DNA from: an uncultured Candidatus Saccharibacteria bacterium
GTDB lineage: Bacteria > Patescibacteriota > Minisyncoccia > Phycocordibacterales > UBA918
Assembly: GCA_964425655.1 (NCBI GenBank)
Contig: CAYRMU010000002.1
Location: 1-44,585 of the forward strand
Length of the DNA: 44,585 nucleotides
Reading direction: 5' to 3'
A program made the position numbers and the translations under genes. The stretch's first letter is position 1. Each line of letters opens with the position of its first letter. The notes under the pieces were generated by a model. It searched no databases and was not told where the DNA came from. It worked only from the letters and a program-made list of their open reading frames with translations. This document shows, piece by piece, positions 3,986 through 42,809 of this stretch.

Positions 3986-4014
3986 ATAGTACGGGAAATA
4001 CCTATAAAAGTCAA
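3986..4014 (-). promoter_or_regulatory. Sigma70-type promoter for the rpsS-rplE block
   Basis: The minus strand reads TTGACT - 17 nt - TACTAT. It lies directly after the terminator of the inserted gene 4062-5147, about 150 nt upstream of rpsS. Confidence 0.55.
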
Positions 4015-4016
4015 TT

Positions 4017-4050
4017 AAACCAGCAGCGGCAGTATGACCGCTGCTGGTTT
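4017..4050 (-). terminator. Terminator hairpin of 4062-5147
   Basis: CCAGCAGCGG / CCGCTGCTGG is a 10-bp stem with an 8-nt loop. The T-rich tail is short (TTTAATTG). Confidence 0.6.
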
Positions 4051-4061
4051 ATACGGGTACT

Positions 4062-5147
4062 TTAGTAACACCCGACTTGCGTTGGAACTGCTCGACAGCT
4101 GCCTGGATTTTCACAGTTAGTTGTCCGATTTTCTGAACAGGTTTCAGGCGTAGTATTGCTCCAGGCGTGACGGGTGAGATAGCATGGACCCCAGCACATA
4201 TTAGTACATGCTGAACTGCCACCTTGCGTTGTCGTCCATTGCTGGTAGAGTGCCCAACCGGCTGGGCATGAAGCTTGGGCAAACTGACAGAACTTGTCTG
4301 CACCCGACGTATACACTGTACCGCCAAGATCAGTACACTGCTTCTCAGAATGTTGGCCATTGACGAGCATTGGTCCAGTTGAACCACTCGGTACACCACA
4401 TGACCAGACACCACCATTTGAAATCAGCGTTTCGCCGTTTCCACATGCAGGAAGCCCACTTGCTGAATTGCCACTTGCACCAATGTATCCAATTAAACGA
4501 ACTTCAACGTTTTGTGTTGCATACGATTGCATCAAAATAATGCCAGCAGCATTTGTTGCAACAGTAACGTATCCCATGCGATTAGCTGACCCGAATAACT
4601 GAAGTCCCGAAGCGCCTGCACCCACCCCACTTCCCACGGTTGAACCCTGAACTCCAGCCACACCCTTTGGTTTAAACGTAAAAGAGTTAGTCGTATTTTG
4701 ACTTGTCGTTACATGGAGATAAACGAGTGTTGCTCGGGCACCGACTATTGCAGCAAGATTAAGATCTATTCCACCGGTATCAACTGCACCACTACCTGTG
4801 ATTGAACCACTGTAAACCACCTGATTAGTAGATACCCACCCGCCGCCCGCAACAGACCCGCAGTTCTCACCGTTTTCATCACAATACTCAGCCGCACCCA
4901 CTCGGCCTGTAACCGTCAGGTCTAAATCATTTACATCAGAGGTACCTCTGACCAGTACTCCTCCTGCCACATCGAGTGCGCCAACGCCTAATCCACCGGA
5001 CTTAATCTGTGACACACCTCCAGTATTGACAGGAGCTGCAACATTGCTTCCTGTGGGAACAGCGGTTGGTGCTGTCCAGGCTGAGAGATAATCAGCCCCA
5101 ATAAGGAGACAGAGTACTAAAATCAAAATTATTGATGAACGGAACAT
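4062..5147 (-). CDS. Secreted Cys-rich modular protein, paralog 1 (function unknown)
   Basis: 361-aa ORF with an ATG start. Signal peptide MFRSSIILILVLCLLIGADYLSA|W. Its N-module (WTAP..P..SNVAAPVNTG, Q.K.G.LGV, YCDENGENC) is shared with 5924-6838 and 8852-9520. Its C-terminal 92-aa 10-Cys module ending TQVGCY is shared with 8852-9520. A terminator hairpin follows. Confidence 0.85.
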   Translation of the reverse strand: MFRSSIILILVLCLLIGADYLSAWTAPTAVPTGSNVAAPVNTGGVSQIKSGGLGVGALDVAGGVLVRGTSDVNDLDLTVTGRVGAAEYCDENGENCGSVAGGGWVSTNQVVYSGSITGSGAVDTGGIDLNLAAIVGARATLVYLHVTTSQNTTNSFTFKPKGVAGVQGSTVGSGVGAGASGLQLFGSANRMGYVTVATNAAGIILMQSYATQNVEVRLIGYIGASGNSASGLPACGNGETLISNGGVWSCGVPSGSTGPMLVNGQHSEKQCTDLGGTVYTSGADKFCQFAQASCPAGWALYQQWTTTQGGSSACTNMCWGPCYLTRHAWSNTTPETCSENRTTNCENPGSCRAVPTQVGCY

Positions 5148-5281
5148 GGCGAAATTGAGAAAAATTTGATTGTACTGTAAGTATACTGGATGTATCTAAT
5201 ACACCATATACCTATCCCCACGCGCGCTGATGTCACTTATTCTGTTACATTAATACAGTCCATGCTAGGCTTGTACCATCT

Positions 5282-5602
5282 ATGCCTAAGCCCCGCGGTC
5301 GAGAACACACCACCCTCACAGAAACAGCCACCGAAGTGGTTAGGGTTTTAGAGCGTATCCCGGGCGTCAAAATGATTGCCCCAGGTGAGATTCGCACCAC
5401 ACAACGCCGAAAAGGTGGCAAACGACACCTAACGCTGGTATATACGAGTGCCGGCTTTGAACTCATCATTACCGGACAAAGTGTTCAGAAGGTAGCGGTA
5501 CACACTGAAGGAGACCCGCTACTAGTGGGAGGAGCGCTCCTTGCTCACAAGGAGCTCCGAGAGTTTGCCGCAAAAGCCCGAGAACGAAAGCCTGGTATAT
5601 AA
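5282..5602 (+). CDS. Small conserved-looking hypothetical protein (106 aa)
   Basis: ORF with an ATG start and no obvious SD, followed immediately by a 13-bp hairpin (5602-5631). The REHTTLT ... MIAPGEI ... GGKRHLTLVYTSAGFELIITGQSVQKVAVH pattern vaguely recalls DUF2103/COG4031-type proteins. That resemblance is from memory only. Confidence 0.55.
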   Translation: MPKPRGREHTTLTETATEVVRVLERIPGVKMIAPGEIRTTQRRKGGKRHLTLVYTSAGFELIITGQSVQKVAVHTEGDPLLVGGALLAHKELREFAAKARERKPGI

Positions 5603-5631
5603 AGAAATCTCCCCGACTGGGGAGATTTCTT
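5602..5631. terminator. Bidirectional hairpin between convergent genes 5282-5602 and 5634-5909
   Basis: AAGAAATCTCCCC-gact-GGGGAGATTTCTT is a 13-bp perfect stem whose arms are T-rich at both ends. Confidence 0.65.
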
Positions 5632-5633
5632 TA

Positions 5634-5909
5634 CTAGTCATTTGGATCTATAACTTCGTCACCTTCTTTGGGTGGTGGTATGGTTGCCGGGTCAGGCAGC
5701 GGAACACCTTCAACAAACTCAATGTCATCCGCAACAGGTGGCAGCAGTGCGGGATTAATCGTTGTATCAGGCTTAGGTGCTACCGGCTCTGGACGTGCCG
5801 CACTGTTACCTACAAAAAGCTGGTGAGCAACAGCTGACAGACCAAATAGTGTGCCTATGAGCACCCCGATTACTATACCAACTGTTGCACCTGCTAGATA
5901 CTGTTTCAT
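5634..5909 (-). CDS. Small single-pass membrane protein with a Pro-rich tail
   Basis: 91-aa ORF with an ATG 14 nt after the stop of 5924-6838. It has an N-terminal TM helix (GATVGIVIGVLIGTLFGLSAV) followed by a Pro/acidic-rich segment. Confidence 0.6.
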   Translation of the reverse strand: MKQYLAGATVGIVIGVLIGTLFGLSAVAHQLFVGNSAARPEPVAPKPDTTINPALLPPVADDIEFVEGVPLPDPATIPPPKEGDEVIDPND

Positions 5910-5923
5910 ATATACGTAGAAGA

Positions 5924-6838
5924 TTAATTTGACGCATCACAATATAATCCATCAATGCGACTGTTGTATGCACTCGCGCCGTACCGCTGCCACTGCCCTG
6001 AAGCATTCAGGAGATGGATGCCGTTATTGCTTGGTGAACTATACGCACCACTAACTGAACCAACGACGGTACTTCCTGGGTAGAAGTAGTTGCACACCCA
6101 AGCCATTTCGGCAGTACGATGGCCAATTGACGAAACGTTCCAATACGCAATACCGGGCACGCCAGCATCTTGCAGCGCTTTGGTCAGTGCATGTCCTCCA
6201 ACAATGTAGCGAATATCAGCAGTTGGAGTAAAGTTCTCTACGCCATAGCTGAACGCCTTGCCTTCACTAGCCAGTTGTGAGATAGATTTCCCAGTGCAGT
6301 CACCCGCCACGTTTTCAGAGTAAAATCCCTGGTCAAGCCGGTACATCTTGTACCACCCTGCACCTGGTCCATAGTAGTAGGCGTATCCGTTACTGTATGG
6401 AAGGTAGCCTCCCTGGTAGACCACCGTTACACCGTTATTCTCGCGACACACGATTGAATCAGGCCAATCCTGGACCTGTGTTCGAATATTACTCTGACCA
6501 CTTGCCACCGTACTAAGATCGGTACAATTTAGACCATTCTCATCGCAGTATTGATCAGCACCTATTTTGCCCTCAACTTCAAGTGTTACCGCTCTGTTAA
6601 ATGCGTCAGAAGTTGATGCACCCTGTACGTACGCACTACCAAACACACTGAGCCCTCCCACACCGAGCAAACCTTCCTTATCTTGCGGCGCGGCCCCGGT
6701 ATTAAGTGGTGCTGCCACATTGCTACTGGTTGGACTTGCCATTGGCGCAGTCCACGCAAAGAGTGCATCACCAGCAACAAGTGCCGCGAGTACCACGGCC
6801 AATGATGCAAACTGCACGTGACGACTAAATAATTTCAT
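5924..6838 (-). CDS. Secreted modular protein, paralog 2 (function unknown)
   Basis: 304-aa ORF. It has a signal peptide and the same N-module as paralogs 1 and 3 (FAWTAP..SP.SSNVAAPLNTG, Q.K.G.LGV, YCDENGLNC). Its Tyr/Gly/Trp-rich C-terminal half is unrelated to the other two. Confidence 0.85.
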   Translation of the reverse strand: MKLFSRHVQFASLAVVLAALVAGDALFAWTAPMASPTSSNVAAPLNTGAAPQDKEGLLGVGGLSVFGSAYVQGASTSDAFNRAVTLEVEGKIGADQYCDENGLNCTDLSTVASGQSNIRTQVQDWPDSIVCRENNGVTVVYQGGYLPYSNGYAYYYGPGAGWYKMYRLDQGFYSENVAGDCTGKSISQLASEGKAFSYGVENFTPTADIRYIVGGHALTKALQDAGVPGIAYWNVSSIGHRTAEMAWVCNYFYPGSTVVGSVSGAYSSPSNNGIHLLNASGQWQRYGASAYNSRIDGLYCDASN

Positions 6839-6981
6839 ATAAATAAATCCTAAAATCTAAACCCTACGTCTATTTTACATGGGTATAGTGCACTGGGTAC
6901 TACATATTCACAGAATACTGTACTCGAGGAGATAGTATGTGGTTACGTATTCCATGTACAGATGCATACAGCGAGCAAAAA

Positions 6982-7019
6982 CAAAAATACCGCCACCCTT
7001 GCGGGTGGCGGTATTTTTG
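6982..7019. terminator. Terminator after rpsJ (bidirectional shape)
   Basis: ATACCGCCACCC-ttgc-GGGTGGCGGTAT, flanked by an A5 run and a T5 run, lies 4 nt after the rpsJ stop. Confidence 0.8.
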
Positions 7020-7022
7020 TTT

Positions 7023-7370
7023 TTACATCATCTTCACATCAATGCTGACGCCTGATGGAAGGGAGAGGTTGGTCAATGCTTCAATCACCTTCGCACTTGG
7101 ATTCTCGATGTCGATAACGCGCTTATGCATGCGCATTTCGAATTGTTCTCGCGCATCTTTATGCACGAAGGTTGAGCGGTTCACCGTGTACTTCTTGATT
7201 TCTGTTGGCAAAGGGATTGGACCAACAACTGCTGCATCGAAACGCAACGCAGTGTCAATAATCGACTTTACACTGGTATCAAGAATCTTGTGCTCGTACG
7301 CACGAACACGGATTCGTAGCTTTTGGATTTCTCCAGCGGCTGCTTTTTTGGTCGTTTTGGCTTCAGCCAT
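7023..7370 (-). CDS. rpsJ: 30S ribosomal protein uS10
   Basis: 115-aa ORF. KLRIRVRAYEHKILD.S...I.......GPIPLPTE...YTV.RS..V.K..REQFEMR.HKR.IDI is the uS10 signature. Confidence 0.95.
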   Translation of the reverse strand: MAEAKTTKKAAAGEIQKLRIRVRAYEHKILDTSVKSIIDTALRFDAAVVGPIPLPTEIKKYTVNRSTFVHKDAREQFEMRMHKRVIDIENPSAKVIEALTNLSLPSGVSIDVKMM

Positions 7371-7405
7371 AAATAGTGGGTACCCGTACTGGGTAGCGAA
7401 CGTGC

Positions 7406-8596
7406 TTACGCAACGATCTTGGTTACCACACCGGCACCTACAGTCTTACCACCCTCGCGGATAGCAAAACTCTGTGACTCTTCCAATGCAATTGGAGATA
7501 CGAGCTTTACCTTGAAGGTAGCTGTATCACCTGGCATTACCATTTCTGTACCTTCAGCAAGTGTTACGTCGCCGGTTACGTCAGTGGTGCGGATGTAGAA
7601 CTGTGGCTTGTAACCTGAGAAGAACGGTGTGTGACGACCACCTTCTTCCTTTGAAAGAACGTACACCTCAGCTTCGAATTCGGTGTGTGGTGTTACTGAG
7701 CCCTTCTTCGCAAGTACCTGACCACGGTGTACATCCTCCTTCTTGATACCGCGGATAAGGATACCAGCGTTGTCGCCAGCCTGTGCCTGATCGAGTGACT
7801 TGTTGAACATTTCAACGCCGGTCACGGTAGTACTTGCAGTATCCTTGATACCAACAATTTCTACTTCTTCACCTACCTTAACAGCTCCACGCTCCACACG
7901 ACCAGTTACGACGGTACCTCGTCCTTCAATTGAGAAGATGTCCTCAATTGGCATAAGGAATGGCTTGTCGAGTTGGCGAACTGGAGTTGGGAAGAATGTA
8001 TCCATTGCATTCACGAGCTCCATTACCTTGTCAGCCCATTCACCACCTTCTGGTGCGTTAAGCGCCTGGAGGCCTGAACCCTTAATAACTGGAGTGTTTG
8101 CTCCGTCGTATCCGTTCTTCGTGAGAAGCTCTCGGAGTTCCTCTTCTACGAGCTCAATCATTTCAGCGTCATCCACCATGTCTACCTTGTTGAGGAATAC
8201 GATGATGTTTGGTACACCTACCTGCTTTGCGAGGAGAACGTGCTCACGAGTCTGTGGCATCGCACCGTCGGTTGCAGCTACTACGAGTACTGCGCCGTCC
8301 ATCTGAGCAGCACCGGTAATCATGTTCTTGATGTAGTCGGCGTGTCCTGGAGCGTCAATGTGCGCGTAGTGGCGACTTGGTGTCCAGTACTCACTGTGTG
8401 AGAGAGAAATAGTAATACCACGAGCCTTTTCTTCTGGGGCCTTGTCGATTTCGTCTACTCCTTTAACGTTAGCTCCGTAGTCCCCTCCCTTCTTTGAGAG
8501 AACGTTGAGAATAGCAGCGGTAAGGGTAGTTTTACCGTGGTCAACGTGACCGATGGTACCTACGTTTACGTGCGGCTTTGTACGATCAAATGACAT
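7406..8596 (-). CDS. tuf: Elongation factor Tu
   Basis: I set the start at the ATG at 8596 ([28 protein letters not shown]). The GTPase motifs DAPGH and NKVD are present. The 15 upstream residues in the track are a spurious extension. Confidence 0.96.
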
Positions 8597-8790
8597 ATAA
8601 ATGTAATTGTTCTTACTTTTAATTAAATAATTACCGCACACGGCTGCTATTCATATTGATATATGAAAAGTGGCACGAGCGCTCGGTCATCGTGGCGCGA
8701 GAACGGCGCACCATGACTGAGCACTGATGTGAAAGAGCAGATATAATCTTAGCCCCGCACGACCGCTAACGGCCGTATGCAGTGCGAGCT

Positions 8791-8818
8791 ATAGTACCAG
8801 ACTAGTCCGGTTTTGCAA
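8791..8818 (-). promoter_or_regulatory. Candidate promoter for tuf-rpsJ
   Basis: The minus strand reads TTGCAA - 16 nt - TACTAT. It would give a leader of about 190 nt before tuf. Confidence 0.4.
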
Positions 8819-8851
8819 GCAAAATACAGTACGTGACCCGACCGGAAAACG

Positions 8852-9520
8852 CTAGTAACAGCCGACCTGGGTAATAGTAGCTGTACAGGTAGCGCTGCCC
8901 CCAAAATCGCATCCTCGTGCAGTATCTCGTCCTGGCACGTACGTACAGGTGGCTGGATTTAGATTTGTAAACGCATGCCCAGCGGCGGTACAGCGCGTAC
9001 CGCATGCATTGCCACACGTCTGGCTCGCGGTGGTTGTCCATTGCTGGTACTTAGTCCAACCTGAAGGACAGCTCACACCATTAAAGCGGCAGACGGAAAC
9101 TGATCCTGTATTAAAGATAGTTCCCCCGGCAGCGGTACACTGCGCTTGTGTGTGCACACCATAGACAATATCGGTACTCGGTGAAGCAGCCCCACTGAAG
9201 GTATCGATAATTGATTTAGCAGTAAAACAATTTTGACCATTCTCATCGCAGTATGCACTCGCGGCAATATTGCCGGTAAGTGAAATTTTTGTGTCGACAG
9301 TTGGTACGTCTGCGCGATTTACCATAATTGCATCCCCCGCTATCAGCTCACTAACGCCAAGAAGCCCAGGCTTCGTTTGTGTGGTGCCACTCGTATTAAC
9401 CGGCGCAGCCACGTTGCTACTTGGCGGGACTGCGGCTGGTGCTACCCAGGCAGAGAGGTAATCTGCTCCGATGAGAAACGTGAGGACGAGGAGCAGGGCT
9501 AGCGGGGTTTTGTAGTTCAT
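8852..9520 (-). CDS. Secreted Cys-rich modular protein, paralog 3 (function unknown)
   Basis: I set the start at the ATG at 9520 (MNYKTPLALLLVLTFLIGADYLSA|W). The GTG extension in the track would run to the edge of the hairpin at 9568-9602. It carries both the N-module and the 96-aa 10-Cys C-module (ending TQVGCY) shared with paralog 1. Confidence 0.85.
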   Translation of the reverse strand: MNYKTPLALLLVLTFLIGADYLSAWVAPAAVPPSSNVAAPVNTSGTTQTKPGLLGVSELIAGDAIMVNRADVPTVDTKISLTGNIAASAYCDENGQNCFTAKSIIDTFSGAASPSTDIVYGVHTQAQCTAAGGTIFNTGSVSVCRFNGVSCPSGWTKYQQWTTTASQTCGNACGTRCTAAGHAFTNLNPATCTYVPGRDTARGCDFGGSATCTATITQVGCY

Positions 9521-9526
9521 ACGTAA

Positions 9527-9532
9527 AGTATA
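9527..9532 (-). promoter_or_regulatory. -10 box (TATACT) 6 nt upstream of the ATG of paralog 3; leaderless configuration
   Basis: The minus strand reads cgtcTATACTttacgtATG. Confidence 0.4.
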
Positions 9533-9567
9533 GACGGTACGGCATAATGATAGAGCTTTCTTATACA

Positions 9568-9602
9568 CAGAGACGGTCGAGGCAAAGCCTCGACCGTCTC
9601 TG
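9568..9602 (-). other. 15-bp perfect GC-rich hairpin without a U-tract
   Basis: CAGAGACGGTCGAGG-caaag-CCTCGACCGTCTCTG lies between the stop of 9621-10001 and the promoter of 8852-9520. Confidence 0.6.
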
Positions 9603-9620
9603 CACTTCAGGCAAAACTAT

Positions 9621-10001
9621 CTATGCTGCTTGCGCCTCATCCACTACACTATGCGGAGCATCAAAGAGCGCGATAAACTGATCGAAACTATCGTCTCTCG
9701 CGGCATTAAATTTGGTCGGTACAAATTCAAGTACGACACCGAGGTCCGCTAGGGCCTTGGTAACATCGTGCTGGCAAAGCTCCAGCTTCCTTCGGTCATC
9801 AAGCACCGATTGTCGCCCGCCATACGCTATCTGTTCAGCTAGCGTTTGATAGGCGTTAACCGCAGCAACAACGGTTGGTTCTGCGCCGTAGCGTTCAAAT
9901 ACTCGTTCTCCCGAGAGGGTCTGTAGTGTCTTCTGATTGTAGCTCTCGTTCGCTGCTGCTTTAGGTACTGGGTTCTGACCAAATAAACCAAATATTTTCA
10001 T
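9621..10001 (-). CDS. Hypothetical cytoplasmic protein (126 aa)
   Basis: Only the part from the ATG at 10001 (MKIFGLFGQ...) is taken. The upstream part of the 264-aa track ORF overlaps rplB in another frame. It is preceded by the rplB terminator and an extended -10 box, and followed by a hairpin. Confidence 0.6.
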   Translation of the reverse strand: MKIFGLFGQNPVPKAAANESYNQKTLQTLSGERVFERYGAEPTVVAAVNAYQTLAEQIAYGGRQSVLDDRRKLELCQHDVTKALADLGVVLEFVPTKFNAARDDSFDQFIALFDAPHSVVDEAQAA

Positions 10002-10010
10002 ATGTCTATG

Positions 10011-10019
10011 AGTATACCA
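10011..10019 (-). promoter_or_regulatory. Extended -10 promoter (TGgTATACT) 9 nt upstream of the ATG at 10001
   Basis: The minus strand reads ttTGgTATACTcatagacatATG, immediately after the rplB terminator. Confidence 0.45.
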
Positions 10020-10052
10020 AAACAACCGGCGCCTGCAGGCGCCGGTTGTTTG
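10019..10052 (-). terminator. Terminator after rplB
   Basis: AACAACCGGCGCC-tgca-GGCGCCGGTTGTT is a 13-bp stem followed by TTGG. Confidence 0.7.
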
Positions 10053-10062
10053 ATAACTCTCT

Positions 10063-10914
10063 CTAGCTTCGCTTGCCCACCTTGCGGCGAGAAACAATAG
10101 CTTTGTTTGAGTACTTCTTTGGTGATCGTGTCTTCTGACCCTTGCCAGTTGGACGACCCTGCTTCGTACGGGCTCGGCGGTGGCCACGCGGTGCGCGACC
10201 TTCACCTCCTCCGTGTGGGTGGTCAACGGCGTTTCGGGCTGAACCACGGTTCTTCGGACGAAGTCCCATGTGTCGAGCGCGACCAGCCTTACCAATCGAT
10301 ACCAAACGGTTTTCTTCGTTTGAAACCTCACCGATGGTTGCCCAAGCAGTTGAGGTAACCTTGCGAACTTCCGTTGATGGCATCTTGAGTGAGGTAGTAC
10401 CGCCGTCTTGCGCAACTACTTCAGCGTAGTTACCAGCAGAACGAGCGAGACGTGCACCTGCTCCCGGCTTCAACTCCACGTTGAACACAAAGGTACCAAC
10501 AGGAATCTTGTGAAGCGGCAAGCGGTTACCCGACTTTACCTTCGCCTCTTCTGAGACGATAAACTCATCACCAGCCTTGAAAGACTGTGGTGCGAGTACG
10601 TAGCGACGCTCACCATCTTTGTAGAGTACAAGGGCGATGAAGCCAGTGCGGTACGGGTCGTATTCAATCGTTTCAACAATTGCAGGGATATCTTTCTTGT
10701 TGTACTGGAAGTCAATTGCACGGTATGTTCGCTTATTTCCACCACCACGGTAGAGCTGCGTTGTGCGTCCCTGACTATTTCGTCCACCAGTACTTCGTCC
10801 ACCTTTCGTGAGCGACTTCAATGGGTTACTCTGGGTTGAGGTAAGCTTCTTCTTATACTCAATTACCGAACCATCGCGACGTCCAGCAGAGGTAGGCTTG
10901 TATGCTTTAACCAT
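10063..10914 (-). CDS. rplB: 50S ribosomal protein uL2
   Basis: 283-aa ORF. RN..G..T...RGGG.KR.YR.IDF and GSARNAVDHPHGGGEG are uL2 hallmarks. Confidence 0.96.
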   Translation of the reverse strand: MVKAYKPTSAGRRDGSVIEYKKKLTSTQSNPLKSLTKGGRSTGGRNSQGRTTQLYRGGGNKRTYRAIDFQYNKKDIPAIVETIEYDPYRTGFIALVLYKDGERRYVLAPQSFKAGDEFIVSEEAKVKSGNRLPLHKIPVGTFVFNVELKPGAGARLARSAGNYAEVVAQDGGTTSLKMPSTEVRKVTSTAWATIGEVSNEENRLVSIGKAGRARHMGLRPKNRGSARNAVDHPHGGGEGRAPRGHRRARTKQGRPTGKGQKTRSPKKYSNKAIVSRRKVGKRS

Positions 10915-10924
10915 ATACTAGAGA

Positions 10925-11296
10925 TTACACGAGGCTGATGGAGTCGCCCTTTTTCAAGTAGACGTACGCCTTCTTCATCCCCTTTTCTGTTAATACGCGA
11001 TTCTTTGCCTTCGACTTATACTGTCGAGGCGTTTTGTTCACGATGTTTACATTCACCGGCGTCACGTTGTAGAGCGCTTTTACCGCAGCCATCACATCAC
11101 GCTTGGTGGCTGTCCGACGAACTTCGAATGTGTATACGTTCTGTTCTCCGAGACGCACCGCCTTTTCAGTGATACGTGGCTTAACGATAACACTTGAGAG
11201 GTTTGCGTCAGTAGCACGAGCTGTTACAGCTGGTGCACTCACGGTCTTCTCAACTGCGCTCTCTTCGATTTTTTTACTTCGACTGAAGAGTGCCAT
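10925..11296 (-). CDS. rplW: 50S ribosomal protein uL23 (N-terminally extended)
   Basis: 123-aa ORF. The core IVKPRITEKA......NVYTFEV...A.K.....AV...Y.V.P..VN matches uL23. An extra leader of about 30 aa is present. Confidence 0.9.
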   Translation of the reverse strand: MALFSRSKKIEESAVEKTVSAPAVTARATDANLSSVIVKPRITEKAVRLGEQNVYTFEVRRTATKRDVMAAVKALYNVTPVNVNIVNKTPRQYKSKAKNRVLTEKGMKKAYVYLKKGDSISLV

Positions 11297-11326
11297 ACTT
11301 AAATAATTACTGAATCAAATCTGCTA

Positions 11327-12010
11327 CTACGCAGCTTTTGGGGTTACCTTTGCCACGCGGGTCACGAGAATATCAAGTGACTCCTTTGGCTCAGCGACGA
11401 TAACGTACTTGTAGGTGAGGAGATCAACTGGGTTGATATCTTTTGCCTGTGCTACTTCGTAGTTACCGAAGTTGCGGAAGCTCAATTCTGCATTCTCGTT
11501 TCGTCCAGAAAGGACAACGAGGGCTGCATTCTTGCGCTTATTCGCGAGCGCGTCGTTACCGCTACCGACAGCAACAGCCTTAATAATGGCCTTTGCTTCA
11601 GTTGCCTTAGGTGCCGCAAAGTTCAAGTCCTCGACGAAGATCATTTCACCGTCTGCAAACTTCTTTGAGAGGGTGGTTGCGAGTGCCTTCGCACGCACTT
11701 TCTTGTTAATCTTCTTATCGTAGTTCTTGTCGTTGGTAGGTCCGTGTGCAACACCACCACCTGCCCAGATTGGTGACCGGCGTGACCCATGACGAGCCCG
11801 ACCAGTTCCCTTCTGCTTCCATGGCTTCTTACCAGTACCGCTTACTTCACTGCGGTCCTTGGTGTGTGCACCACTGGTGCGAGCGTTACTCTGCATCGAA
11901 ACCACTACTTCGTGAACGAGGTCAGCGTTCCAAGCAATGCCGAAAACTGCTTCTGGAAGCGTGATTGAACTCGCCTCCTTACCATCCTTGGTGAATACTT
12001 TTGTTTCCAT
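11327..12010 (-). CDS. rplD: 50S ribosomal protein uL4
   Basis: 227-aa ORF. TKDRSEVSGTGKKPWKQKGTGRARHGS.RSPIW.GGGVAHGP is the uL4 signature. Confidence 0.95.
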   Translation of the reverse strand: METKVFTKDGKEASSITLPEAVFGIAWNADLVHEVVVSMQSNARTSGAHTKDRSEVSGTGKKPWKQKGTGRARHGSRRSPIWAGGGVAHGPTNDKNYDKKINKKVRAKALATTLSKKFADGEMIFVEDLNFAAPKATEAKAIIKAVAVGSGNDALANKRKNAALVVLSGRNENAELSFRNFGNYEVAQAKDINPVDLLTYKYVIVAEPKESLDILVTRVAKVTPKAA

Positions 12011-12020
12011 ATGAATACAC

Positions 12021-12641
12021 TTAGATGTTACGCACTTCGACTAATGCTCCTTTTCGACCTGGAATTGCTCCCTTGATGAGAAGAACGTTCTCACTTGGAT
12101 TTACCTGGAGAACCTTGAGGTTCTTTACGGTGATACGGTCACTACCCATGCGACCTGCCATGCGCGTACCCTTGAGTACACGTCCAAAGCCTGTAGCACC
12201 AATAGAACCTGGTTCGCGGAGTGAGTGCTTCATACCGTGAGAACCTGGACCGCCACGGAATCCGTGACGCTTCACGCCTCCCTGGAAGCCCTTACCCTTT
12301 GAAACTGCTGATACTGTTACTGCATCTCCAATCGTGAAGACACCAGCGTCAATTGTCTGTCCCTTCTCGAAGCCGTCAACTGATTCGTCGCGGTTCTTAC
12401 GTGGACGGAACTCCTTCACAAATTTGAACGCGCCCCCGAGGTGACCCATTTCAGCCTTTGTGCGGCGATGATCCTTCTGTGCACCGGCAGCTACCTGTAC
12501 CGCAGTGTACCCATCTGCTGCTTCACCCTTCACCATCGTAACGGTGAGCGGAGAAACGCGGAGGATAGTAGCTGGGTGACATGTACCGTCAGCATCGAAG
12601 ACCTGTGTCATGCCTTCTTTCGTTCCCAAAATAAACTTCAT
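12021..12641 (-). CDS. rplC: 50S ribosomal protein uL3
   Basis: 206-aa ORF. GTKEGMTQVF......PATIL and SKGKGFQGGVKRHGF.GGP.SHG are uL3 hallmarks. Confidence 0.95.
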   Translation of the reverse strand: MKFILGTKEGMTQVFDADGTCHPATILRVSPLTVTMVKGEAADGYTAVQVAAGAQKDHRRTKAEMGHLGGAFKFVKEFRPRKNRDESVDGFEKGQTIDAGVFTIGDAVTVSAVSKGKGFQGGVKRHGFRGGPGSHGMKHSLREPGSIGATGFGRVLKGTRMAGRMGSDRITVKNLKVLQVNPSENVLLIKGAIPGRKGALVEVRNI

Positions 12642-13317: not shown

Positions 13318-14412
13318 TTAGCTCTCGTAGCTGTCAGGAAGAAGACGGACAGTAGCAGTATCAACCACAACTCCGTCGCACGTGAGCGTAAAGGTGGTTT
13401 GATTGAGGACAATATCCACCGATTGAGAGCCGGCAAGCGACGGTACGGAGAGTCCATTCGGCCCAGTTAGCGTACACGTGCTGGCGGCTGAATTCCAACT
13501 CACGGTCACCGAACTACCGCGCCGAGCAACACTCGTTGACACGTTCACGTCACCGGTGACAGCAGTTGCGTTACAGAGTCCCGTCCCGACATTACACCCA
13601 TTTACACAGGTCGTACTCACCGTCGCGGTTGGTTCACACCACATATTGGTACCAGTAACTTCTGAGACATTGCCGACACACTGAGCGGTACCGGCTCCCG
13701 TGCATGGACGATCAAAACCAGCCACCGCAAAACTCACCGCGCCAAGCACATCACTGCCCCAGGCAGTTGATTCATCTGGATTGACCTGGTAGAACGTTCC
13801 GTTATCATTTAAACGAACACCATACGTTGAGCACGTTGCTGCGTCATGATTGGCGCAGTTAAGGGAAATCCAGCCATCCCAGCCACCAGTCACGGTCGAA
13901 TCAGCTAAAGCTCCACTGCACGCAGCTGGGTCAGCAAACACCGAACAGGCTCGTGCCCACCCCATCAGTTCGTAGCCACTAGCGTCATTGCCGACCACAC
14001 GCGCATCGCAGCTTCCCGCTGGACAACCGGTAAGGCCACCAAAGCGTACCCAACCCAGACCCGTCTGATTGGTTGGAGCGGTACCTCCTACACTTGGTGT
14101 GTTTGAGCCCCAGGCATACCCGGTCACTGTCTTGTTGGCATTGTTATTAATCACTACTTTGTAGTTATTTGTGCACCCACCAGCCCCAGCATTGGCACAG
14201 TTAAGGGAAATCCACCCCATACCCTGCGAGCCACCTGACCCATCAGGCTGTACCCCCGCCCATAAGTATCCCGTAAGTTCGGCTGGAGTAGTCCAGGTCG
14301 CCTGCGCGTACACAGACTCAAAGGTCTTAAATTGCAACGCCATCCAGGTGCCCACAAGAACAATTGCAACAATTGCTCCAGCAATAGCACTGGTACGGAT
14401 AAAAGTATTCAT
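13318..14412 (-). CDS. Secreted Cys-rich repeat protein (GW-I/V-x-L/F repeats plus a C-terminal Ig-like domain)
   Basis: 364-aa ORF with an N-terminal hydrophobic anchor or signal. The motif recurs as GMGWISLNCAN / GLGWVRFGG / GWDGWISLNCAN, alternating with (Y/T)AWGS(N/D). The C-terminal ~90 aa look like an Ig-fold (VSWNSAASTCTLTG). Confidence 0.8.
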   Translation of the reverse strand: MNTFIRTSAIAGAIVAIVLVGTWMALQFKTFESVYAQATWTTPAELTGYLWAGVQPDGSGGSQGMGWISLNCANAGAGGCTNNYKVVINNNANKTVTGYAWGSNTPSVGGTAPTNQTGLGWVRFGGLTGCPAGSCDARVVGNDASGYELMGWARACSVFADPAACSGALADSTVTGGWDGWISLNCANHDAATCSTYGVRLNDNGTFYQVNPDESTAWGSDVLGAVSFAVAGFDRPCTGAGTAQCVGNVSEVTGTNMWCEPTATVSTTCVNGCNVGTGLCNATAVTGDVNVSTSVARRGSSVTVSWNSAASTCTLTGPNGLSVPSLAGSQSVDIVLNQTTFTLTCDGVVVDTATVRLLPDSYES

Positions 14413-17356: not shown

Positions 17357-17887
17357 CTACTCTACACTACACGCACCATCGGTGTACGAAAGTACGTTTC
17401 CGCGCGCACAGGCACTGCAGCCATTACTAAAGGTCTCAGGAATCGGATTGCACGGTGTAGTAATACACTGAATTTCGACAAGTCCACACACCGGCGCATA
17501 GATAGCTGGACACACATCAGCCTCAGACATCTCCTCGCTACACACCACTGGCTCTGACCCGCCGTTTGGCGGCATAGCCGGACACGCAGCAAACGCACAG
17601 TCTGGACCAACTCTCCCTACGTATGAGCCATCCGGACACTCTTTTGCATCCATAGTGCACATTGTCGGACCCTCTTCAGGAATCTCGGTTGGTGAAGGTA
17701 GCGTCTCACTATCATTACTCGGTGGCATACTGCCGCCTTCCTCAACCTCTGGCACGGTAGTCGTAGCCAATTGAGAAGTCCCAGAATCAATGTCAGGCGC
17801 CACAGCCACTCCCTGCCAGACCAAAATCGCAAAGACAAGTGCGAGTGCTCCAAACAGCACCATGTGTTGTTGTTTCATATCTACCAT
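17357..17887 (-). CDS. Secreted Cys-rich protein with a Kazal-like C-terminal domain
   Basis: 176-aa ORF with a signal or anchor and a Pro/Glu-rich linker. CTMDAKECPDGSYVGRVGPDCAFAAC is followed by CPAIYAPVCG...ETFSNGCSAC...GAC, which fits the Kazal pattern C-x-Y-x-PVCG ... (Y/F)-x-N-x-C. Confidence 0.7.
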   Translation of the reverse strand: MVDMKQQHMVLFGALALVFAILVWQGVAVAPDIDSGTSQLATTTVPEVEEGGSMPPSNDSETLPSPTEIPEEGPTMCTMDAKECPDGSYVGRVGPDCAFAACPAMPPNGGSEPVVCSEEMSEADVCPAIYAPVCGLVEIQCITTPCNPIPETFSNGCSACARGNVLSYTDGACSVE

Positions 17888-22362: not shown

Positions 22363-23385
22363 ATGTGGCACTGGTTTATCGCCCTCATACTCATCAGTAC
22401 ACCGCTGTCTATGCACGCGGAAGAAATCAACGCTGGCTTTGTTCGTGGCATCTGGTACAGCAGTGAACGCGTCTTTGCTGACACACCCACCCGCGTTTAT
22501 GTCGCTATTAGAAATAACACTGGGGCAGACCTCACCGGTACCGTCACATTTTTTGCAAACGATAAAAAGCTTGGTACACAACCGGTCGCAGCCCTCAACA
22601 ATCGAATTATCGAAAGCTGGGTTGACTGGGAGCCAGCCTATGGTGAGCATACACTTCGAGCTGAACTCTCACGAGTAAAGCTATCAGCCGTTGGGAGTGA
22701 AACTGAAACCGTTGCTACTGCACTCGCCGCTGCCACAGACACGCTCTTTGTTGACTACGATACCGACAGCGATGATGTCGGCAACGCAACTGATGACGAT
22801 GATGACGGAGACGGTGCGAGCGACACCACTGAAGCGACTAATGGTACTGACCCACTCGTAGCATCCAATACCAAAACTGAAGCTGCACCACGTGCAACTG
22901 AGCAGGTCGATGTTGCCACTGTCCCCGTACGTTCAGCTTCCGATAACACGACTGTTGGTGGTCTCGAACGCTACCTTACGCCATCACGCGCTGATACACT
23001 CTTAGGCTCAATCACTTCGTGGGCTGATACCACTAAAGCAAAACTCGACACGTATCGAGATGAACGCGCGCGTGAACGTGCAGCTGAAGAACAAGCACCA
23101 CAAATCACCGTCGACAATAACGGCTTTGGCGAAGTGACTCGCTCAACCGATCCTGATGCTGCTCCCGAAGCACCGAGCAATCCACCCAATAGTCTCGTGA
23201 GTGATCTCGTTGCCCTCATAGGTACACTGCTTGGCGGCATCATGACGCTCATCCTTTCCGGGATTTCGCTCCTGCTCGGACACGCGCTCGTTCTCCAGCT
23301 ACTCCTACTCCTCGCCATCCTTGCGGGGACGTACATCACTGCCCGCAAGCTGAGCCATCGCCCTATTGCTAAAAAGCGCAAATAA
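22363..23385 (+). CDS. Secreted, membrane-anchored surface protein (Ig/CARDB-like N-domain, Asp-rich Ca-binding-like repeat, C-terminal TM)
   Basis: 340-aa ORF with a signal peptide (MWHWFIALILISTPLSMHA). DYDTDSDDVGNATDDDDDGDGASD resembles thrombospondin type-3 DxDxDG repeats. It has C-terminal hydrophobic helices and a KKRK tail. A TATAAT box lies 8 nt before the ATG. Confidence 0.7.
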   Translation: MWHWFIALILISTPLSMHAEEINAGFVRGIWYSSERVFADTPTRVYVAIRNNTGADLTGTVTFFANDKKLGTQPVAALNNRIIESWVDWEPAYGEHTLRAELSRVKLSAVGSETETVATALAAATDTLFVDYDTDSDDVGNATDDDDDGDGASDTTEATNGTDPLVASNTKTEAAPRATEQVDVATVPVRSASDNTTVGGLERYLTPSRADTLLGSITSWADTTKAKLDTYRDERARERAAEEQAPQITVDNNGFGEVTRSTDPDAAPEAPSNPPNSLVSDLVALIGTLLGGIMTLILSGISLLLGHALVLQLLLLLAILAGTYITARKLSHRPIAKKRK

Positions 23386-38729: not shown

Positions 38730-40097
38730 TTAAAATGACTCTTGCCAGCCGTTGAGCGTAAAGCCGCCGCCTGGACCACTCGTAAAGAGAAGGTTGACGA
38801 GTCCACTTTCGTAGGTCACCACGGTACTATTGCCGAGTGTAATCAAGTACCCAGTAACCTCTTTGAGCGACACACTATTAGCCATATTTACCCGACCATG
38901 CGCCGCATACACGAGGAGATCACCCACCGACGACTGCCCAACATCAATCGCAATTGGCGTATTATTGCCATTTTCCGAAGCATTATTTTGTGAAATCAAA
39001 AGTACGTACGACTTTGGATCACCTGAACCGGCAAACGACGTACTATTCTCAATGGTAATTTGACTACTGGTAAGGCGATTCGACTCATTGTCAGCGATAA
39101 TCGGCACCGTTCGCTCACCCACTGCTGGCGCCACCGCAATATTAGGGCCAGTTTTAAAGGTGATATTTCCCGTTGCCCAAATAGTACCAGTGAGTGTAAT
39201 GTCGGTGTTGTTACCCCGAAACTCAAGGTTGCACTCAACCTTCACAAACCCAAGCGTGGTGTCACTACTAATAACGTAGGTACCACTACTACATTCGGGG
39301 TCAGTACTCGCAATCACCGTACCTGAATCAACCACATCCTGCTTCAGCACATCGATTTCTTCATCAGTTATCGGCATCGTGGTTGGGTCTTCTTCTGGTT
39401 GATGGGCGAAAATTGAACCATTTACCACAGCGCCACCGATGCGCTCATAAATGTACGCATCACCTGTCACAATGCCGCCGTTCAGCGTATACGCATAGGC
39501 ATCACCACCAATCTCTGAATCACGTATCGTACGCGCTCTTCCGGTACCACTCGCTTCCACACCACGAATGAGTCCTGATGCCCCCGCCGAGATAACATCG
39601 CCATCGATAAAAGATGTACCTCCTCCAACAATTGTGCCATTTGAAAACACGTTACCCAGAACCTGCGAGGAATTTGTCATAGAAAAGCCACCGTTACCGC
39701 TCTGTACACCGAAATTGAATGAGGCGCCACTCCCTAGGTAGAGCTCTAGCTCACTCTGCTTAAATGCACGACCAGCTTCTCCGTCAGCCACAATTTGGTA
39801 CATATCGGTACCACCATTGAACGTATAGGTAGTCGTTGCCACGGCGCCACCAACCTCCACTACTTCGCTTGGCTCCACTGTCAGTCCGGCAATGAATCGA
39901 TACGCCATATCTTCAACTCCACTTTCAGCCGCATAGAAACTCTGACTTCCAGTCGAAAACAAACGGTAGCTGAGGAGATCGCTGTAAAACGACCGAGCCA
40001 GTACTGCCGTCAGGGCAGCGCTCGCAATCACAAAAAACAGCATGAAGAGCAAGAGGGCGGCACCACGAGCATGAGTGTTTGTTTGCATACTATTCAT
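38730..40097 (-). CDS. Large pilus-associated protein with a PilX_N-like N-terminus and beta-helix-like repeats
   Basis: 455-aa ORF. Its ATG overlaps the stop of the upstream pilin gene (ATGAATAG). The N-terminus ARGAALLLFMLFFVIASAALTAV...AAESGVE resembles the PilX N-terminal domain, but there is no G|F-x-x-x-E prepilin site. It is rich in Gly/Asn/Ser repeats. A strong terminator follows. Confidence 0.65.
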   Translation of the reverse strand: MNSMQTNTHARGAALLLFMLFFVIASAALTAVLARSFYSDLLSYRLFSTGSQSFYAAESGVEDMAYRFIAGLTVEPSEVVEVGGAVATTTYTFNGGTDMYQIVADGEAGRAFKQSELELYLGSGASFNFGVQSGNGGFSMTNSSQVLGNVFSNGTIVGGGTSFIDGDVISAGASGLIRGVEASGTGRARTIRDSEIGGDAYAYTLNGGIVTGDAYIYERIGGAVVNGSIFAHQPEEDPTTMPITDEEIDVLKQDVVDSGTVIASTDPECSSGTYVISSDTTLGFVKVECNLEFRGNNTDITLTGTIWATGNITFKTGPNIAVAPAVGERTVPIIADNESNRLTSSQITIENSTSFAGSGDPKSYVLLISQNNASENGNNTPIAIDVGQSSVGDLLVYAAHGRVNMANSVSLKEVTGYLITLGNSTVVTYESGLVNLLFTSGPGGGFTLNGWQESF

Positions 40098-40593
40098 ATG
40101 AACCTCGTAAGACGCTACTACTGTAGTACGTTTCTGTTACCGTCGTATCGCCGACTGTCGCCGTAGCAGCAATCTCAACGCGAAGCAGTATAGTTGATAC
40201 CATATCGTACTGGTACACAGTAAAGCTCGTTACCGTAATACCATCGCCGGTTATCGGCACTGCAGTACCGCCATTTTCTGCCACGGTAATCGCACCACCG
40301 CTCAAGGTATAGACTCGTTCGACTGCTTCGTACTGCAACGAGACGGTACTCGGTGACACATCGAACGTACTACCGGCCTGATCGAGCGCAGTCGCGTTGC
40401 GAACATCTGCCAACATCCGCTCGTACGCACCACGCACTTGCTCGGTTAATATTTTCTCGGCCCGGTATGCCTTTAGCGAGTCAGAAAAATTCAAAAGTGA
40501 CGCCACCGCCGTTGAAGCGAGTAGTACAAACAGGGCAATATACACCAGTATTTCAACGAGTGTGAAGCCGCGGTGTGTGAGAGGTAGAGCCAT
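40090..40593 (-). CDS. Type IV pilin-like (prepilin-type N-terminal cleavage/methylation) protein
   Basis: I set the start at the ATG at 40593 (MALPLTHRG|FTLVEILVYIALFVLL), which gives the classic G/FTLxE prepilin site. The track start is a TTG 5 codons upstream. Confidence 0.8.
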   Translation of the reverse strand: MALPLTHRGFTLVEILVYIALFVLLASTAVASLLNFSDSLKAYRAEKILTEQVRGAYERMLADVRNATALDQAGSTFDVSPSTVSLQYEAVERVYTLSGGAITVAENGGTAVPITGDGITVTSFTVYQYDMVSTILLRVEIAATATVGDTTVTETYYSSSVLRGSYE

Positions 40594-40597
40594 AAAG

Positions 40598-41083
40598 TTA
40601 GAGGTCAAAAATATTGGTGAGGAGGGCCGTCAGTGACACACTCTCGCCACTTCCCCACGTTACAGTAACGGTCACCAATCGACTCCCTGCATCAATCGTG
40701 GCACCCGGAGCGGTACTTGCCACTAAGTCGTCATCGGCATTACGGTAGGCATTGGCAAGTGTGACGGTTCTGGTGAACGTACTATCAATAACTTCCGGCG
40801 TGGTACCAAGTGCAAGTGTCGTCGGATCAATATCAAGATAGTAACTAGTCCCAATGGTCAATGCTTCAAGAGTGTTCCAGTTGAGATCTCGGATTCCTCG
40901 AACCATTTCTTGTCCTTCTACCGCCAGAAGGTTTGCTTTTGTATGTTCACGAACCACGGTGGCGTTCGCAAAGAAAAGTCCAAGTGCATTTGCAGTAAAT
41001 ACAACCACTACAGCAAAGAGTGAGACACCAATCAGCACTTCAATGAGTGAAATTCCTCGGTTGTACCGATGTGCAATTCGCAT
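40598..41083 (-). CDS. Type IV pilin-like (prepilin-type N-terminal) protein
   Basis: 161-aa ORF. MRIAHRYNRG|ISLIEVLIGVSLFAVVV has Gly at -1, Glu at +5 and a hydrophobic helix. Confidence 0.8.
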   Translation of the reverse strand: MRIAHRYNRGISLIEVLIGVSLFAVVVVFTANALGLFFANATVVREHTKANLLAVEGQEMVRGIRDLNWNTLEALTIGTSYYLDIDPTTLALGTTPEVIDSTFTRTVTLANAYRNADDDLVASTAPGATIDAGSRLVTVTVTWGSGESVSLTALLTNIFDL

Positions 41084-41087
41084 ACAT

Positions 41088-41570
41088 CTATTCTACTAGA
41101 CCGCTGGCATAAATTGTAATCGTTGTCGTTGCACTACTACGCGCATCAATCACGTCGATGGTACCTGACACATCTGGAATACCACTAATCCGAGCAAAAA
41201 TGACGCTGGTTGCTGCACCAGTGAGTGACGGATCAATCACAATCCCGCTCGGGAAGGCAATAATCTGGTTTGCTGCACTGCCAGGCGTCACACTCGCACC
41301 GCTAAAGTACTCAATGGTTGATGTCCCAATGTAGACACCGTAGGTCGTCTCTTCGAGCGATGCGATTGATTTACTGCGCGCTTCAGTGAGCCCACTCTTT
41401 AACTCAGCCACAATCTGCGCATGCTGCTGACGTGCGCCATAGCGAGAAATTCCAGCTAGTGAGATGGCTGCCATAATCGCAATGACGGCGAACACTACTA
41501 GTATCTCGACAAACGTGAAGCCACCTATGCTTGCTCCGCCGTTCCGCTCTATGCGAAAAGATTGGTACAT
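41088..41570 (-). CDS. Type IV pilin-like (prepilin-type N-terminal) protein, first after pilC
   Basis: I set the start at the ATG at 41570 (MYQSFRIERNGGASIGG|FTFVEILVVFAVIAIM), 4 nt after the pilC stop. The longer track ORF would overlap pilC. Confidence 0.8.
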   Translation of the reverse strand: MYQSFRIERNGGASIGGFTFVEILVVFAVIAIMAAISLAGISRYGARQQHAQIVAELKSGLTEARSKSIASLEETTYGVYIGTSTIEYFSGASVTPGSAANQIIAFPSGIVIDPSLTGAATSVIFARISGIPDVSGTIDVIDARSSATTTITIYASGLVE

Positions 41571-41574
41571 AGTA

Positions 41575-42801: not shown

Positions 42802-42809
42802 AGGTTTGA

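Follow-up and report, generated by a model that had tools for sequence, protein, structure and literature searches.

Three cysteine-rich proteins with export-type features, encoded between ribosomal-protein genes of a Candidatus Saccharibacteria contig, share the N-terminal module of a large, mainly patescibacterial family

Much of bacterial diversity lies in the Patescibacteria (the candidate phyla radiation, CPR), most of which live attached to other cells. To our knowledge, the molecules by which CPR bacteria choose their hosts are essentially unknown beyond type IV pili. The 44,585-nucleotide contig CAYRMU010000002.1 of an uncultured Candidatus Saccharibacteria bacterium (GenBank assembly GCA_964425655.1; this whole stretch is hereafter called the window) carries three minus-strand genes, designated m1, m2 and m3, whose Cys-rich products bear predicted signal peptides, and which are set among genes for ribosomal proteins. 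What are these proteins, and why do they lie there? An initial annotation, made from the sequence alone, had read them as a three-member family of secreted modular proteins in the junctions of a broken ribosomal-protein cluster, and as candidates for host recognition or adhesion. The gene order of the S10 region is among the most conserved in bacteria (PMC8046335). We show herein that the three proteins share a module with about 6,000 clusters of proteins, found mostly in Patescibacteria, on which very diverse C-terminal parts are carried. With moderate confidence, we take m1-m3 to be exported, ligand-binding mini-fibres with a carrier module, and old paralogues within this large, mainly patescibacterial, Sec-exported, disulfide-stabilised family.

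All three reading frames were recovered as annotated, and they begin with the same colinear N-terminal module (N-module). By MAFFT alignment and a six-frame motif scan, the order of motifs runs from L(S/F)A through W(T/V)APxAxPxxSNVAAP(V/L)NT and QxKxGxLGV, and then through about 30 variable residues to YCDENGxNC; a YCDENG(E/L/Q)NC loop (C-x6-C) closes the module in m1, m2 and m3. The N-module is 73-77 residues long, the mature copies are 49-60% identical in pairs over 72-74 residues, and a profile hidden Markov model (HMM) recognizes them with E-values of 1e-26 to 1e-28. Motif scan and HMM agree that the window holds exactly three copies. In addition, m1 and m3 share a C-terminal module, hereafter the 10-Cys head, of 92 and 96 residues with exactly 10 Cys each, 48% identity and the motifs QCT..GGT, C(Q/R)F, CP(A/S)GW, YQQWTTT and TQVGCY, the last directly before the stop codon. 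By the alignment, neither the mid-module of m1 (~125 residues) nor the C-terminal half of m2 is related to the other members. No match to m1-m3 was found in Pfam, NCBIfam or PHROG, and PDB sequence-profile searches with the N-module and the 10-Cys module returned 0 matches; neither module could be placed in a characterized family, in line with the initial annotation.

The initial annotation had also pointed to nucleotide-level similarity in the last codons of m1 and m3. The similarity is real and yet trivial, with 15 of 18 nucleotides the same over the TQVGCY codons and 32 of 63 overall. Repeats between the m1-m3 genes at the DNA level amount only to patches of 41-48 nucleotides at 65-79%. Because DNA similarity is confined to such patches, m1-m3 are old paralogues that are held together by protein-level selection. 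A recent local duplication was rejected on the same ground, and also because each 10-Cys head is closer to a head from another genome. Two start sites allow a choice: ATG at 9520 yields a canonical signal peptide for m3, while a GTG upstream at 9568 is possible; m1 is 354 residues long according to gene callers, and its longer start (MFRSS...) is common to P0010 (P and L numbers denote proteins and loci, respectively, of relatives).

The size of the family became evident when 1.84 billion representatives were searched exhaustively by HMMER, using a profile that excluded the signal peptide. Clustered at 50% identity, the matches form 6,125 clusters at E <= 1e-3 and 649 at E <= 1e-10, mostly in Patescibacteria, so that the supposed family of three is actually one of about 6,000 clusters. 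A word-indexed protein search is insensitive to these short modules, and gave 12, 2 and 4 matches versus the 6,125 of the exhaustive profile. Even so, the 12 proteins from the m1 search already display one N-module on differing ends; the partners among m1 relatives are the m1 mid-module with other ends, a collar-like head ending in ETRPxNxALLYCQK, the 10-Cys head and, in P0010, a thrombospondin type 1 domain (TSP1; PF19030) joined to an m1-type N-module. Among 121 small members (150-450 residues) examined for their heads, a Trp at residue 24-31 is invariant in nearly all, i.e., the N-module follows directly on the signal peptide. The W, P, N, Q, K and G of the module are invariant or at least 90% conserved across these 121 members, and Y, C, D, G, N and C of the (Y/F)CDxxGxNC loop are invariant or nearly so in the family. 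The heads, in contrast to this constant module, are very diverse. Only about 17 of the 121 are recognizable by Pfam: TSP1 in six, PCSK9_C3 in three, H_lectin and Gp53-like_C in two each, and Collar, Peptidase_S74, Big_2 and a Big-like domain, all of them binding, fibre or Ig-type domains.

Giant members of 0.9-6.8 thousand residues also exist, in which the cap occurs once and the second half of the module, L.LDV.G.IGA..YCD..G.NC, is repeated 4-11 times. Five of the six giants tested end in Peptidase_S74, an intramolecular chaperone that trimeric tail fibres and spikes typically carry. Because the giants repeat the second half of the N-module, m1-m3 appear to represent the short end of a family of fibre proteins, with a cap, one fibre unit and a head. 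No account of the N-module family was found in the literature on CPR secreted, surface or tail-fibre proteins or on rearrangement of S10 gene order. The N-module, the 10-Cys domain and a repeat of the neighboring orf364 family (see below) are thus possible new domain models, while the carrier-plus-head architecture itself is already known. Three proteins with the N-cap are encoded on contigs of 58-59% GC binned as Hyphomicrobium/Hyphomicrobiaceae (L022 9911-10543, L015 1287-1877 and L036 1574-1981), one Hyphomicrobium contig being 97.7 kb long with 59% GC, so that the cap may extend beyond Patescibacteria. Giant proteins of Micavibrio, of Alphaproteobacteria and of a complete Planctomicrobium genome (L065-L067) have the YCDxxGxNC unit by itself.

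The N-termini of m1-m3 have, by heuristic inspection, one or two K/R in the first eight residues, a 12-residue hydrophobic core (Kyte-Doolittle, KD, 2.8-3.6) and a G/D-containing c-region, with Ala at -1 and Leu at -3. Ala also occupies -1 in 63 of 109 small members, and an AlphaFold2 (AF2) model of m3 has the signal helix spanning residues 4-23. Downstream of the N-module, the number of Cys is even in about 105 of 111 small members, as would be expected if the proteins are extracytoplasmic and disulfide-bonded. A family signature, in which a hydrophobic segment and Ala are followed within 0-2 residues by W-x-x-P...P..N(V/T)xAP(I/V/L)Nx(G/S)...QxKxGx(L/F), is present in m1-m3. Marks of other classes of exported proteins were looked for in the three proteins and were absent. 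The lipobox [LVI][ASTVI][GAS]C does not occur; only m1 has a Cys in its signal segment (LVLC), with Leu at -1, and that Cys is not conserved in m2 or m3. No sortase signal (an LPXTG-type motif with a hydrophobic segment and a basic tail) is found at the C-termini TQVGCY (m1 and m3) and LYCDASN (m2), and there is no class III signal peptide, i.e., no PF07963 match at E <= 1 and no leader Gly before F-x-x-x-E, unlike the three true pilins of the window, which match PF07963. A Pfam scan likewise gave no Collar domain (PF07484), which is present in L001b and in one of 121 members, and no C-terminal chaperone of the Peptidase_S74 type (PF13884) in m1-m3, nor any toxin domain in m1-m3 or the 121 members (the PADLOC library was not scanned).

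Few proteins, about 10 in all, have the 10-Cys head: the profile search added two, and P0072, P0103, P0105 and a gene of L007 between S10 and L3 were recognized by inspection. This head has 7-8 conserved Cys columns with totals of 8, 10 or 12 Cys, and it also sits on GNVGIGTTSP..KLEV fibre repeats in P0013 and P0014. The m1 head is 80% identical to P0003, and that of m3 is 64% identical to its closest relative, L001c/P0103; because both values exceed their mutual 48%, the two heads are old paralogous subtypes. In the AF2 model of m3, the 10-Cys head is beta-rich with a pLDDT of 91-97, which points to a real domain; no structural relative was found in PDB or BFVD. The motif with which this head opens, F-x-F-N-x-x-x-C-P-x-G-W, is also present in collar-like heads of sister proteins, and hhalign aligns the two kinds of head over 16 columns only (probability 59%, E 9e-5), a hint of common origin and no more. 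The m1 mid-module (AF2 pLDDT 74-88) is common to P0002 and P0004-8 with 72-81% identity, and the C-terminal half of m2 has an ortholog of 49% identity (P0142), whose gene lies directly after S10 in L006. The view that these proteins are rapidly diverging does not fit such values, since L3 and L4 of the genomes that share the mid-module are 65-67% identical. With domains as conserved as L3/L4 between the same genomes, diversity comes about by module combination and gene turnover. The suggestion of domain shuffling on a constant module, by comparison, is borne out: in L001, the stretch from S10 to L3 holds four N-module genes in tandem, 18-90 bp apart, each with a head of its own (Gp53-like_C; Collar; 10-Cys; the mid-module with another Cys-rich end).

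Are such genes found beside ribosomal-protein genes elsewhere? A scan of one genome per species, with patterns from a 5-sequence alignment, gave 62 loci, almost all in Patescibacteria (Paceibacterota, Kaiser-, Yonath-, Campbell-, Adler-, Taylor- and Nealsonbacteria, and others), with few outside. The contigs of P0004 and P0005 have an ancestral-looking order of EF-G, an orf364 homolog, a small transmembrane (TM) ORF, EF-Tu, S10, one to four tandem N-module genes, L3-L4-L23-L2 and a giant fibre-like gene. In the closest relatives, whose EF-Tu is 80-88% identical, N-module genes occupy the slots between orf364 and EF-Tu, between EF-Tu and S10, and between S10 and L3. The region between L2 and S19 holds N-module genes in the window, where m1 lies between DUF2103 and S19, and probably also in L018, with two just upstream of DUF2103. 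DUF2103 marks the gap before S19 in five loci (L007, L012, L018, L030 and L041; 50-68% identity); the DUF2103-S19 gap has no N-module gene in L041, L012 and L030, and in L007 S19 is beyond the locus taken. L030 resembles the window in having no L3-L2 between S10 and S19. m2 lies with its small TM companion right behind S10, an arrangement that L006 shares. A further junction of this supercluster, after SecY-adk-map-ndk, is occupied in a different lineage by P0011 and a second family gene. The association of N-module genes with ribosomal-protein junctions is real and recurrent, and conserved in the clade of the window. Related genomes have members in the same junctions, but members do not always flank ribosomal-protein blocks, since many of them lie elsewhere in these genomes. 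An exported fibre-like giant (at least 1,926 residues) with GNVGIGTSSP..KLTV repeats follows L2 in sister genomes (L005 14023-19800, L001 13740-13994), where its gene occupies the slot taken by orf126 and m3 in the window.

When ORFs lying on the same strand and no more than 4 kb from an N-module gene were clustered without bias at 63 loci, the commonest neighbor, ahead of ribosomal genes, was the family of orf364 (25 of 63 loci; 22-25 including jackhmmer). The spacing of the two genes, on the same strand, is often 0-60 bp or an overlap, and many such pairs have no ribosomal genes nearby; in the clade of the window, orf364 always follows EF-G. Proteins of the orf364 family are rich in Cys, have a hydrophobic segment at the N-terminus and contain several G(Y/W)AWSxN(I/V)GWIxF/L motifs; orf364 itself has no convincing Pfam match, and its homologs have propeller-like repeats with weak WD40-like matches. 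Further homologs lie at L047 1973-2944, L052 10898-12163 and L059 1475-3103. In L035, L052, L059 and L064, the orf364/N-module pair lies directly upstream, on the same strand, of pilB-pilC-three pilins-orf455, at 16-83 bp from pilB or overlapping it, and in L017 it does so at a distance of 1.4 kb. PilB and PilC were also recurrent families in the clustering, each at six of the 63 loci. The window contains the same type of operon, and its end lies 24 bp upstream of pilB, i.e., at the position of the pair in the other genomes. Judging by these linkages, the N-module family may have orf364 as a functional partner, and the type IV pilus as well in some lineages.

Within the window, where neighboring genes were assigned by Pfam, the order on the minus strand is EF-G, orf364, orf111, L3-L4-L23-L2, orf126, m3, EF-Tu-S10, m2, TM91, DUF2103 (plus strand), m1 and S19-L22-S3. 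The cluster is therefore broken as had been proposed, with tuf-S10 placed between L2 and S19 and not ahead of L3. The L3-L4-L23-L2-orf126 block lies upstream of tuf-S10 in the window (7023-12641, minus strand) and downstream of it in L001, L005 and L041. At least four independent NCBI metagenome assemblies (L072-L075) have the same order as the window, and this order is hence not a misassembly; an assembly artefact was rejected on this ground, and short Logan contigs also span the junctions of m3. Genes of the N-module family flank the L3-L2-orf126 block, and recombination between paralogues is a possible cause of its movement, although their present DNA similarity is too low to show it. TM91, which has no Pfam family, has a homolog of 44% identity directly after the m2 ortholog in L006. 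orf126 has no Pfam family either and was shifted along with the L3-L2 block, and small ORFs resembling it by position follow L2 in L007, L012 and L041. The window has no S12/S7 genes upstream of EF-G, a spot taken by a glutamate dehydrogenase gene in L001 and L005; since S12/S7 are not there, the str operon also appears to be split in this clade. Two other exported proteins of the window were seen by the way. One (17357-17887, minus strand, upstream of EF-G) is an exported Cys-rich protein of 176 residues with no Pfam match at E <= 0.01, whose C-terminal ...CPAIYAPVCG...NGCSAC... looks Kazal-like by eye; the other (22363-23385, plus strand) is an exported protein of 340 residues with a bacterial TSP3 repeat (E 2.6e-5, 24.4 bits; Pfam cut-off 25 bits), an acidic region and a C-terminal membrane anchor, and is a further putative surface protein.

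The initial annotation had credited two of the genes with their own promoter or terminator signals. Hairpins and a -35/-10-like site were indeed found, as consensus matches (Table 1), and promoter-like matches in the region are not above shuffled expectation. The hairpin at 9568-9602 sets m3 apart from the L3-L2-orf126 block, and a perfect inverted repeat separates S10 from m2. These signals fit m1-m3 as transcription units of their own, as matches to consensus rather than as proof. The inverted repeat at 6977-7024 has a 4-nucleotide loop and the arms AAAAACAAAAATACCGCCACCC / GGGTGGCGGTATTTTTGTTTTT, overlaps the S10 stop codon and has A/T runs on both sides, by which it resembles a bidirectional terminator. 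No tRNA genes or Rfam elements were found in the gaps around m1-m3.

Table 1. Features of the window in and around m1-m3
Feature	Nucleotides	Strand	Residues	Remarks
m1	4062..5147	-	361 aa	ORF list, MAFFT alignment, HMM matches for N-module and C-module
m1 putative signal peptide	5079-5147	-	1-23
m1 N-module	4860-5078	-	24-96
m1 mid-module	4473-4847	-	about 101-225	predicted beta-sandwich
m1 linker		-		contains Cys; between mid-module and 10-Cys head
m1 10-Cys head	4065-4340	-	270-361
m2	5924..6838	-	304 aa	ORF list, alignment, HMM match
m2 putative signal peptide	6755-6838	-	1-28
m2 N-module	6524-6754	-	29-105
m2 C-terminal half	5927-6523	-		Tyr/Gly-rich, 4 Cys
m3	8852..9520	-	222 aa	ORF list, alignment, HMM match
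m3 putative signal peptide	9449-9520	-	1-24
m3 N-module	9227-9448	-	25-98
m3 10-Cys head	8855-9142	-	127-222	short linker ahead
-35/-10-like site	3986-4014	-		after m1 hairpin, ahead of S19
Terminator-like hairpin	4016..4051	-		15-bp stem; directly after m1 stop
Sigma-70-like match	5169..5198	-		TAGATA-18-TACAAT; 22 bp upstream of m1 start codon; consensus match only
DUF2103	5282-5602	+		predicted metal-binding; opposite strand
TM91	5634..5909	-	91 aa	single-pass membrane/Pro-rich ORF, directly downstream of m2
Inverted repeat	6977..7024	.		perfect, 22 nt; at S10 stop codon
Hairpin between orf126 and m3	about 9568..9602	-		15-bp stem; read from sequence
orf126	9621-10001	-	126 aa	no signal peptide; directly after L2
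Hairpin after L2	about 10021-10050			from sequence
orf364	13318..14412	-	364 aa	Cys-rich, exported or membrane-anchored; candidate partner
Type IV pilus operon	38730-44561	-		Pfam
orf455	38730-40097	-	455 aa	conserved; no Pfam match
N_methyl pilin	40090-40608	-		PF07963
N_methyl pilin	40598-41083	-		PF07963
N_methyl pilin	41088-41609	-		PF07963
PilC	41575-42801	-
PilB	42810-44561	-

As mini-fibres, m1-m3 would each consist of a tripartite signal peptide, probably cut just before the almost invariant Trp, of a Pro-rich cap (W-x-x-P-x-x-x-P-x-x-N-V-x-A-P-x-N-x-G-x-x-x-Q-x-K-x-G-x-L) with one fibre unit ending in YCDxxGxNC, and of an interchangeable C-terminal head. The constant module may dock or assemble the protein at the cell surface, with the orf364-family protein as a candidate partner, joined in some lineages by the apparatus of the type IV pilus. 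The variable head may in turn bind a ligand, e.g., a glycan or a protein on the host or on a neighboring cell, and a role in adhesion or host recognition is probable by analogy and from the heads of sister proteins. Exchange of heads, together with the gain and loss of paralogues, would alter the repertoire. In the clade of the window, such genes would have settled as autonomous transcription units in the junctions of ribosomal-protein sub-operons, a settling that in this organism coincides with the translocation of L3-L4-L23-L2.

Several observations weigh against this explanation. Leu is a less common residue of signal peptidase I sites at -3, and the hydrophobic helix of m1-m3 could remain as a membrane anchor. 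The label of binding domains is extrapolated from the minority of heads that Pfam recognizes (~17 of 121), and the heads of m1-m3 have no counterpart of their own among known binding folds: Foldseek gave no significant match to the m3 model (best E 3.1 in PDB and 0.8 in BFVD), and to the m1 mid-module, in a model of lower quality, weak jelly-roll, carbohydrate-binding module (CBM) or TNF-like matches alone (E at least 0.016). The N-module of m3 was modelled as a monomer at low confidence (pLDDT 55-68), a result compatible with, though no proof of, an extended or oligomeric element. Neither orf364 nor the pilus operon is adjacent to m1-m3 in the window. In addition, the sample of loci is biased to relatives of the window copies, since the patterns of the scan were derived from those copies.

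By analogy, m1-m3 come closest in function to modular type IV pilins such as PilB and PilC of Streptococcus sanguinis, whose pilin module acts as a carrier and displays an adhesive module grafted onto it (PMC8179133). The variable module of such pilins is a lectin, a vWA domain or others, and they come in multi-gene sets, are widespread in CPR and serve adhesion (PMC8179133). Both kinds of protein have a small constant N-terminal carrier, a short linker and a variable functional module, and some N-module genes lie directly upstream of a pil operon. Class membership nonetheless fails: unlike these pilins, m1-m3 have the features of Sec-type pre-proteins, and the conserved motif of the N-module follows the hydrophobic segment instead of lying inside it. 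A more specific version of the mini-fibre explanation would make m1-m3 dependent on the type IV pilus, either as accessory adhesins which, together with orf364, are presented by the pilus (PilY1/PilC-like), or as Sec-exported cargo of a pseudopilus resembling that of a type II secretion system (T2SS). The placement of the orf364/N-module pair beside pilB, the recurrence of PilB and PilC, the same type of operon in the window and the propeller-like repeats of orf364 homologs all speak for it, but m1-m3 lie 29 kb from that operon, the pair in the Kaiserbacteria-like clade adjoins EF-G/EF-Tu instead, a class III signal peptide and a PF07963 match are missing from m1-m3, and pil adjacency is seen in only 4-5 of 62 loci, so that we regard this version as possible but unlikely.

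Readings as toxins, as an S-layer or as prophage remnants are less likely than mini-fibres. A constant N-terminus with a variable C-terminus and small disulfide-rich heads would also suit secreted polymorphic toxins or bacteriocin-like effectors, with the small downstream membrane proteins as immunity factors; a small TM ORF is conserved downstream of m2 and its ortholog, and TM ORFs follow orf364 too. Such effectors are nevertheless improbable, as the recognizable heads include no nuclease, deaminase, peptidase toxin or pore former in the Pfam scan, the four tandem genes of L001 have no interleaved immunity genes, and the giant members are fibres ending in Peptidase_S74. An abundant envelope structure (S-layer or sheath subunits), for which the ribosomal location would serve very high constitutive expression, could account for placement between highly expressed operons across the clade, and the constant N-module could act as a lattice or anchor element. 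Against this, there are several paralogues per locus with unrelated heads, copy number and slots vary between close genomes, each gene is insulated by its own hairpins and does not lie within ribosomal-protein transcripts, and the lectin and tail-fibre-type heads point to recognition; we consider an S-layer more improbable still. Least probable is that m1-m3 are tail-fibre remnants of a prophage or tailocin lying by chance in the ribosomal cluster. Phage tail fibres, phage receptor-binding proteins (RBPs) and cellular Peptidase_S74 fibres do resemble them in having a conserved N-terminal attachment part and exchangeable C-terminal receptor-binding heads, and sister proteins do contain Collar, Gp53-like_C and Peptidase_S74 domains or, in the giants, long fibres of L.LDV.G.IGA..YCD..G.NC units. 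Unlike phage fibres, however, m1-m3 lack these Pfam domains, a signal peptide stands at the N-terminus of every member, and the chromosomal slot is conserved across species-level genomes with no other phage genes nearby. No relatives were found in IMG/VR or, by tblastn, among GenBank phages, nor was there a PHROG match, and a phage origin of m1-m3 was rejected.

Two other known groups deserve comparison with the mini-fibres proposed here. Phage Tail Collar domain proteins occur in bacteria (PF07484; MdpB/COG4675-like), and Collar or collar-like heads are carried on the same N-module in L001b, P0006-8 and P0012. The likeness of the 10-Cys head to them is, on the contrary, limited to 16 columns, and its five disulfide-capable pairs and TQVGCY end have no counterpart there. 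The Vsp/Vlp proteins of Mycoplasma, which are host-dependent bacteria with small genomes, are encoded by multi-copy tandem genes with a conserved signal/N-terminal region and variable exposed parts. The N-module family is similar in its tandem multi-copy genes, constant N-terminus and variable remainder, but a lipobox, repeat-driven phase variation and invertible promoters are all absent from it, and its variation is an exchange of whole domains between old paralogues.

For annotators, the N-module, the 10-Cys head and the orf364 repeat offer two or three new domain models. The locus further indicates that non-ribosomal genes repeatedly colonize junctions of the S10 region, and that L3-L2 was translocated in one organism, which bears on marker-gene-based binning and on ideas about the conserved S10 order. 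A bolder proposal, which we hold to be doubtful, is that the N-module and orf364 families constitute an undescribed, mainly CPR surface-display system that plugs interchangeable lectin or tail-fibre-like heads, including a new 10-Cys fold, onto a conserved partner or the type IV pilus, and that its paralogues, by lodging in the junctions of the otherwise near-universal str-S10-spc cluster, drove the breaking and reshuffling of that cluster in this clade; if true, this system would be the main host-recognition repertoire of patescibacterial episymbionts. The value of the finding lies less in a demonstrated new mechanism than in a candidate repertoire for CPR biology: with a searchable N-terminal signature and a recurrent partner gene, the N-module family may supply candidates for host recognition that can be taken into CPR experiments.

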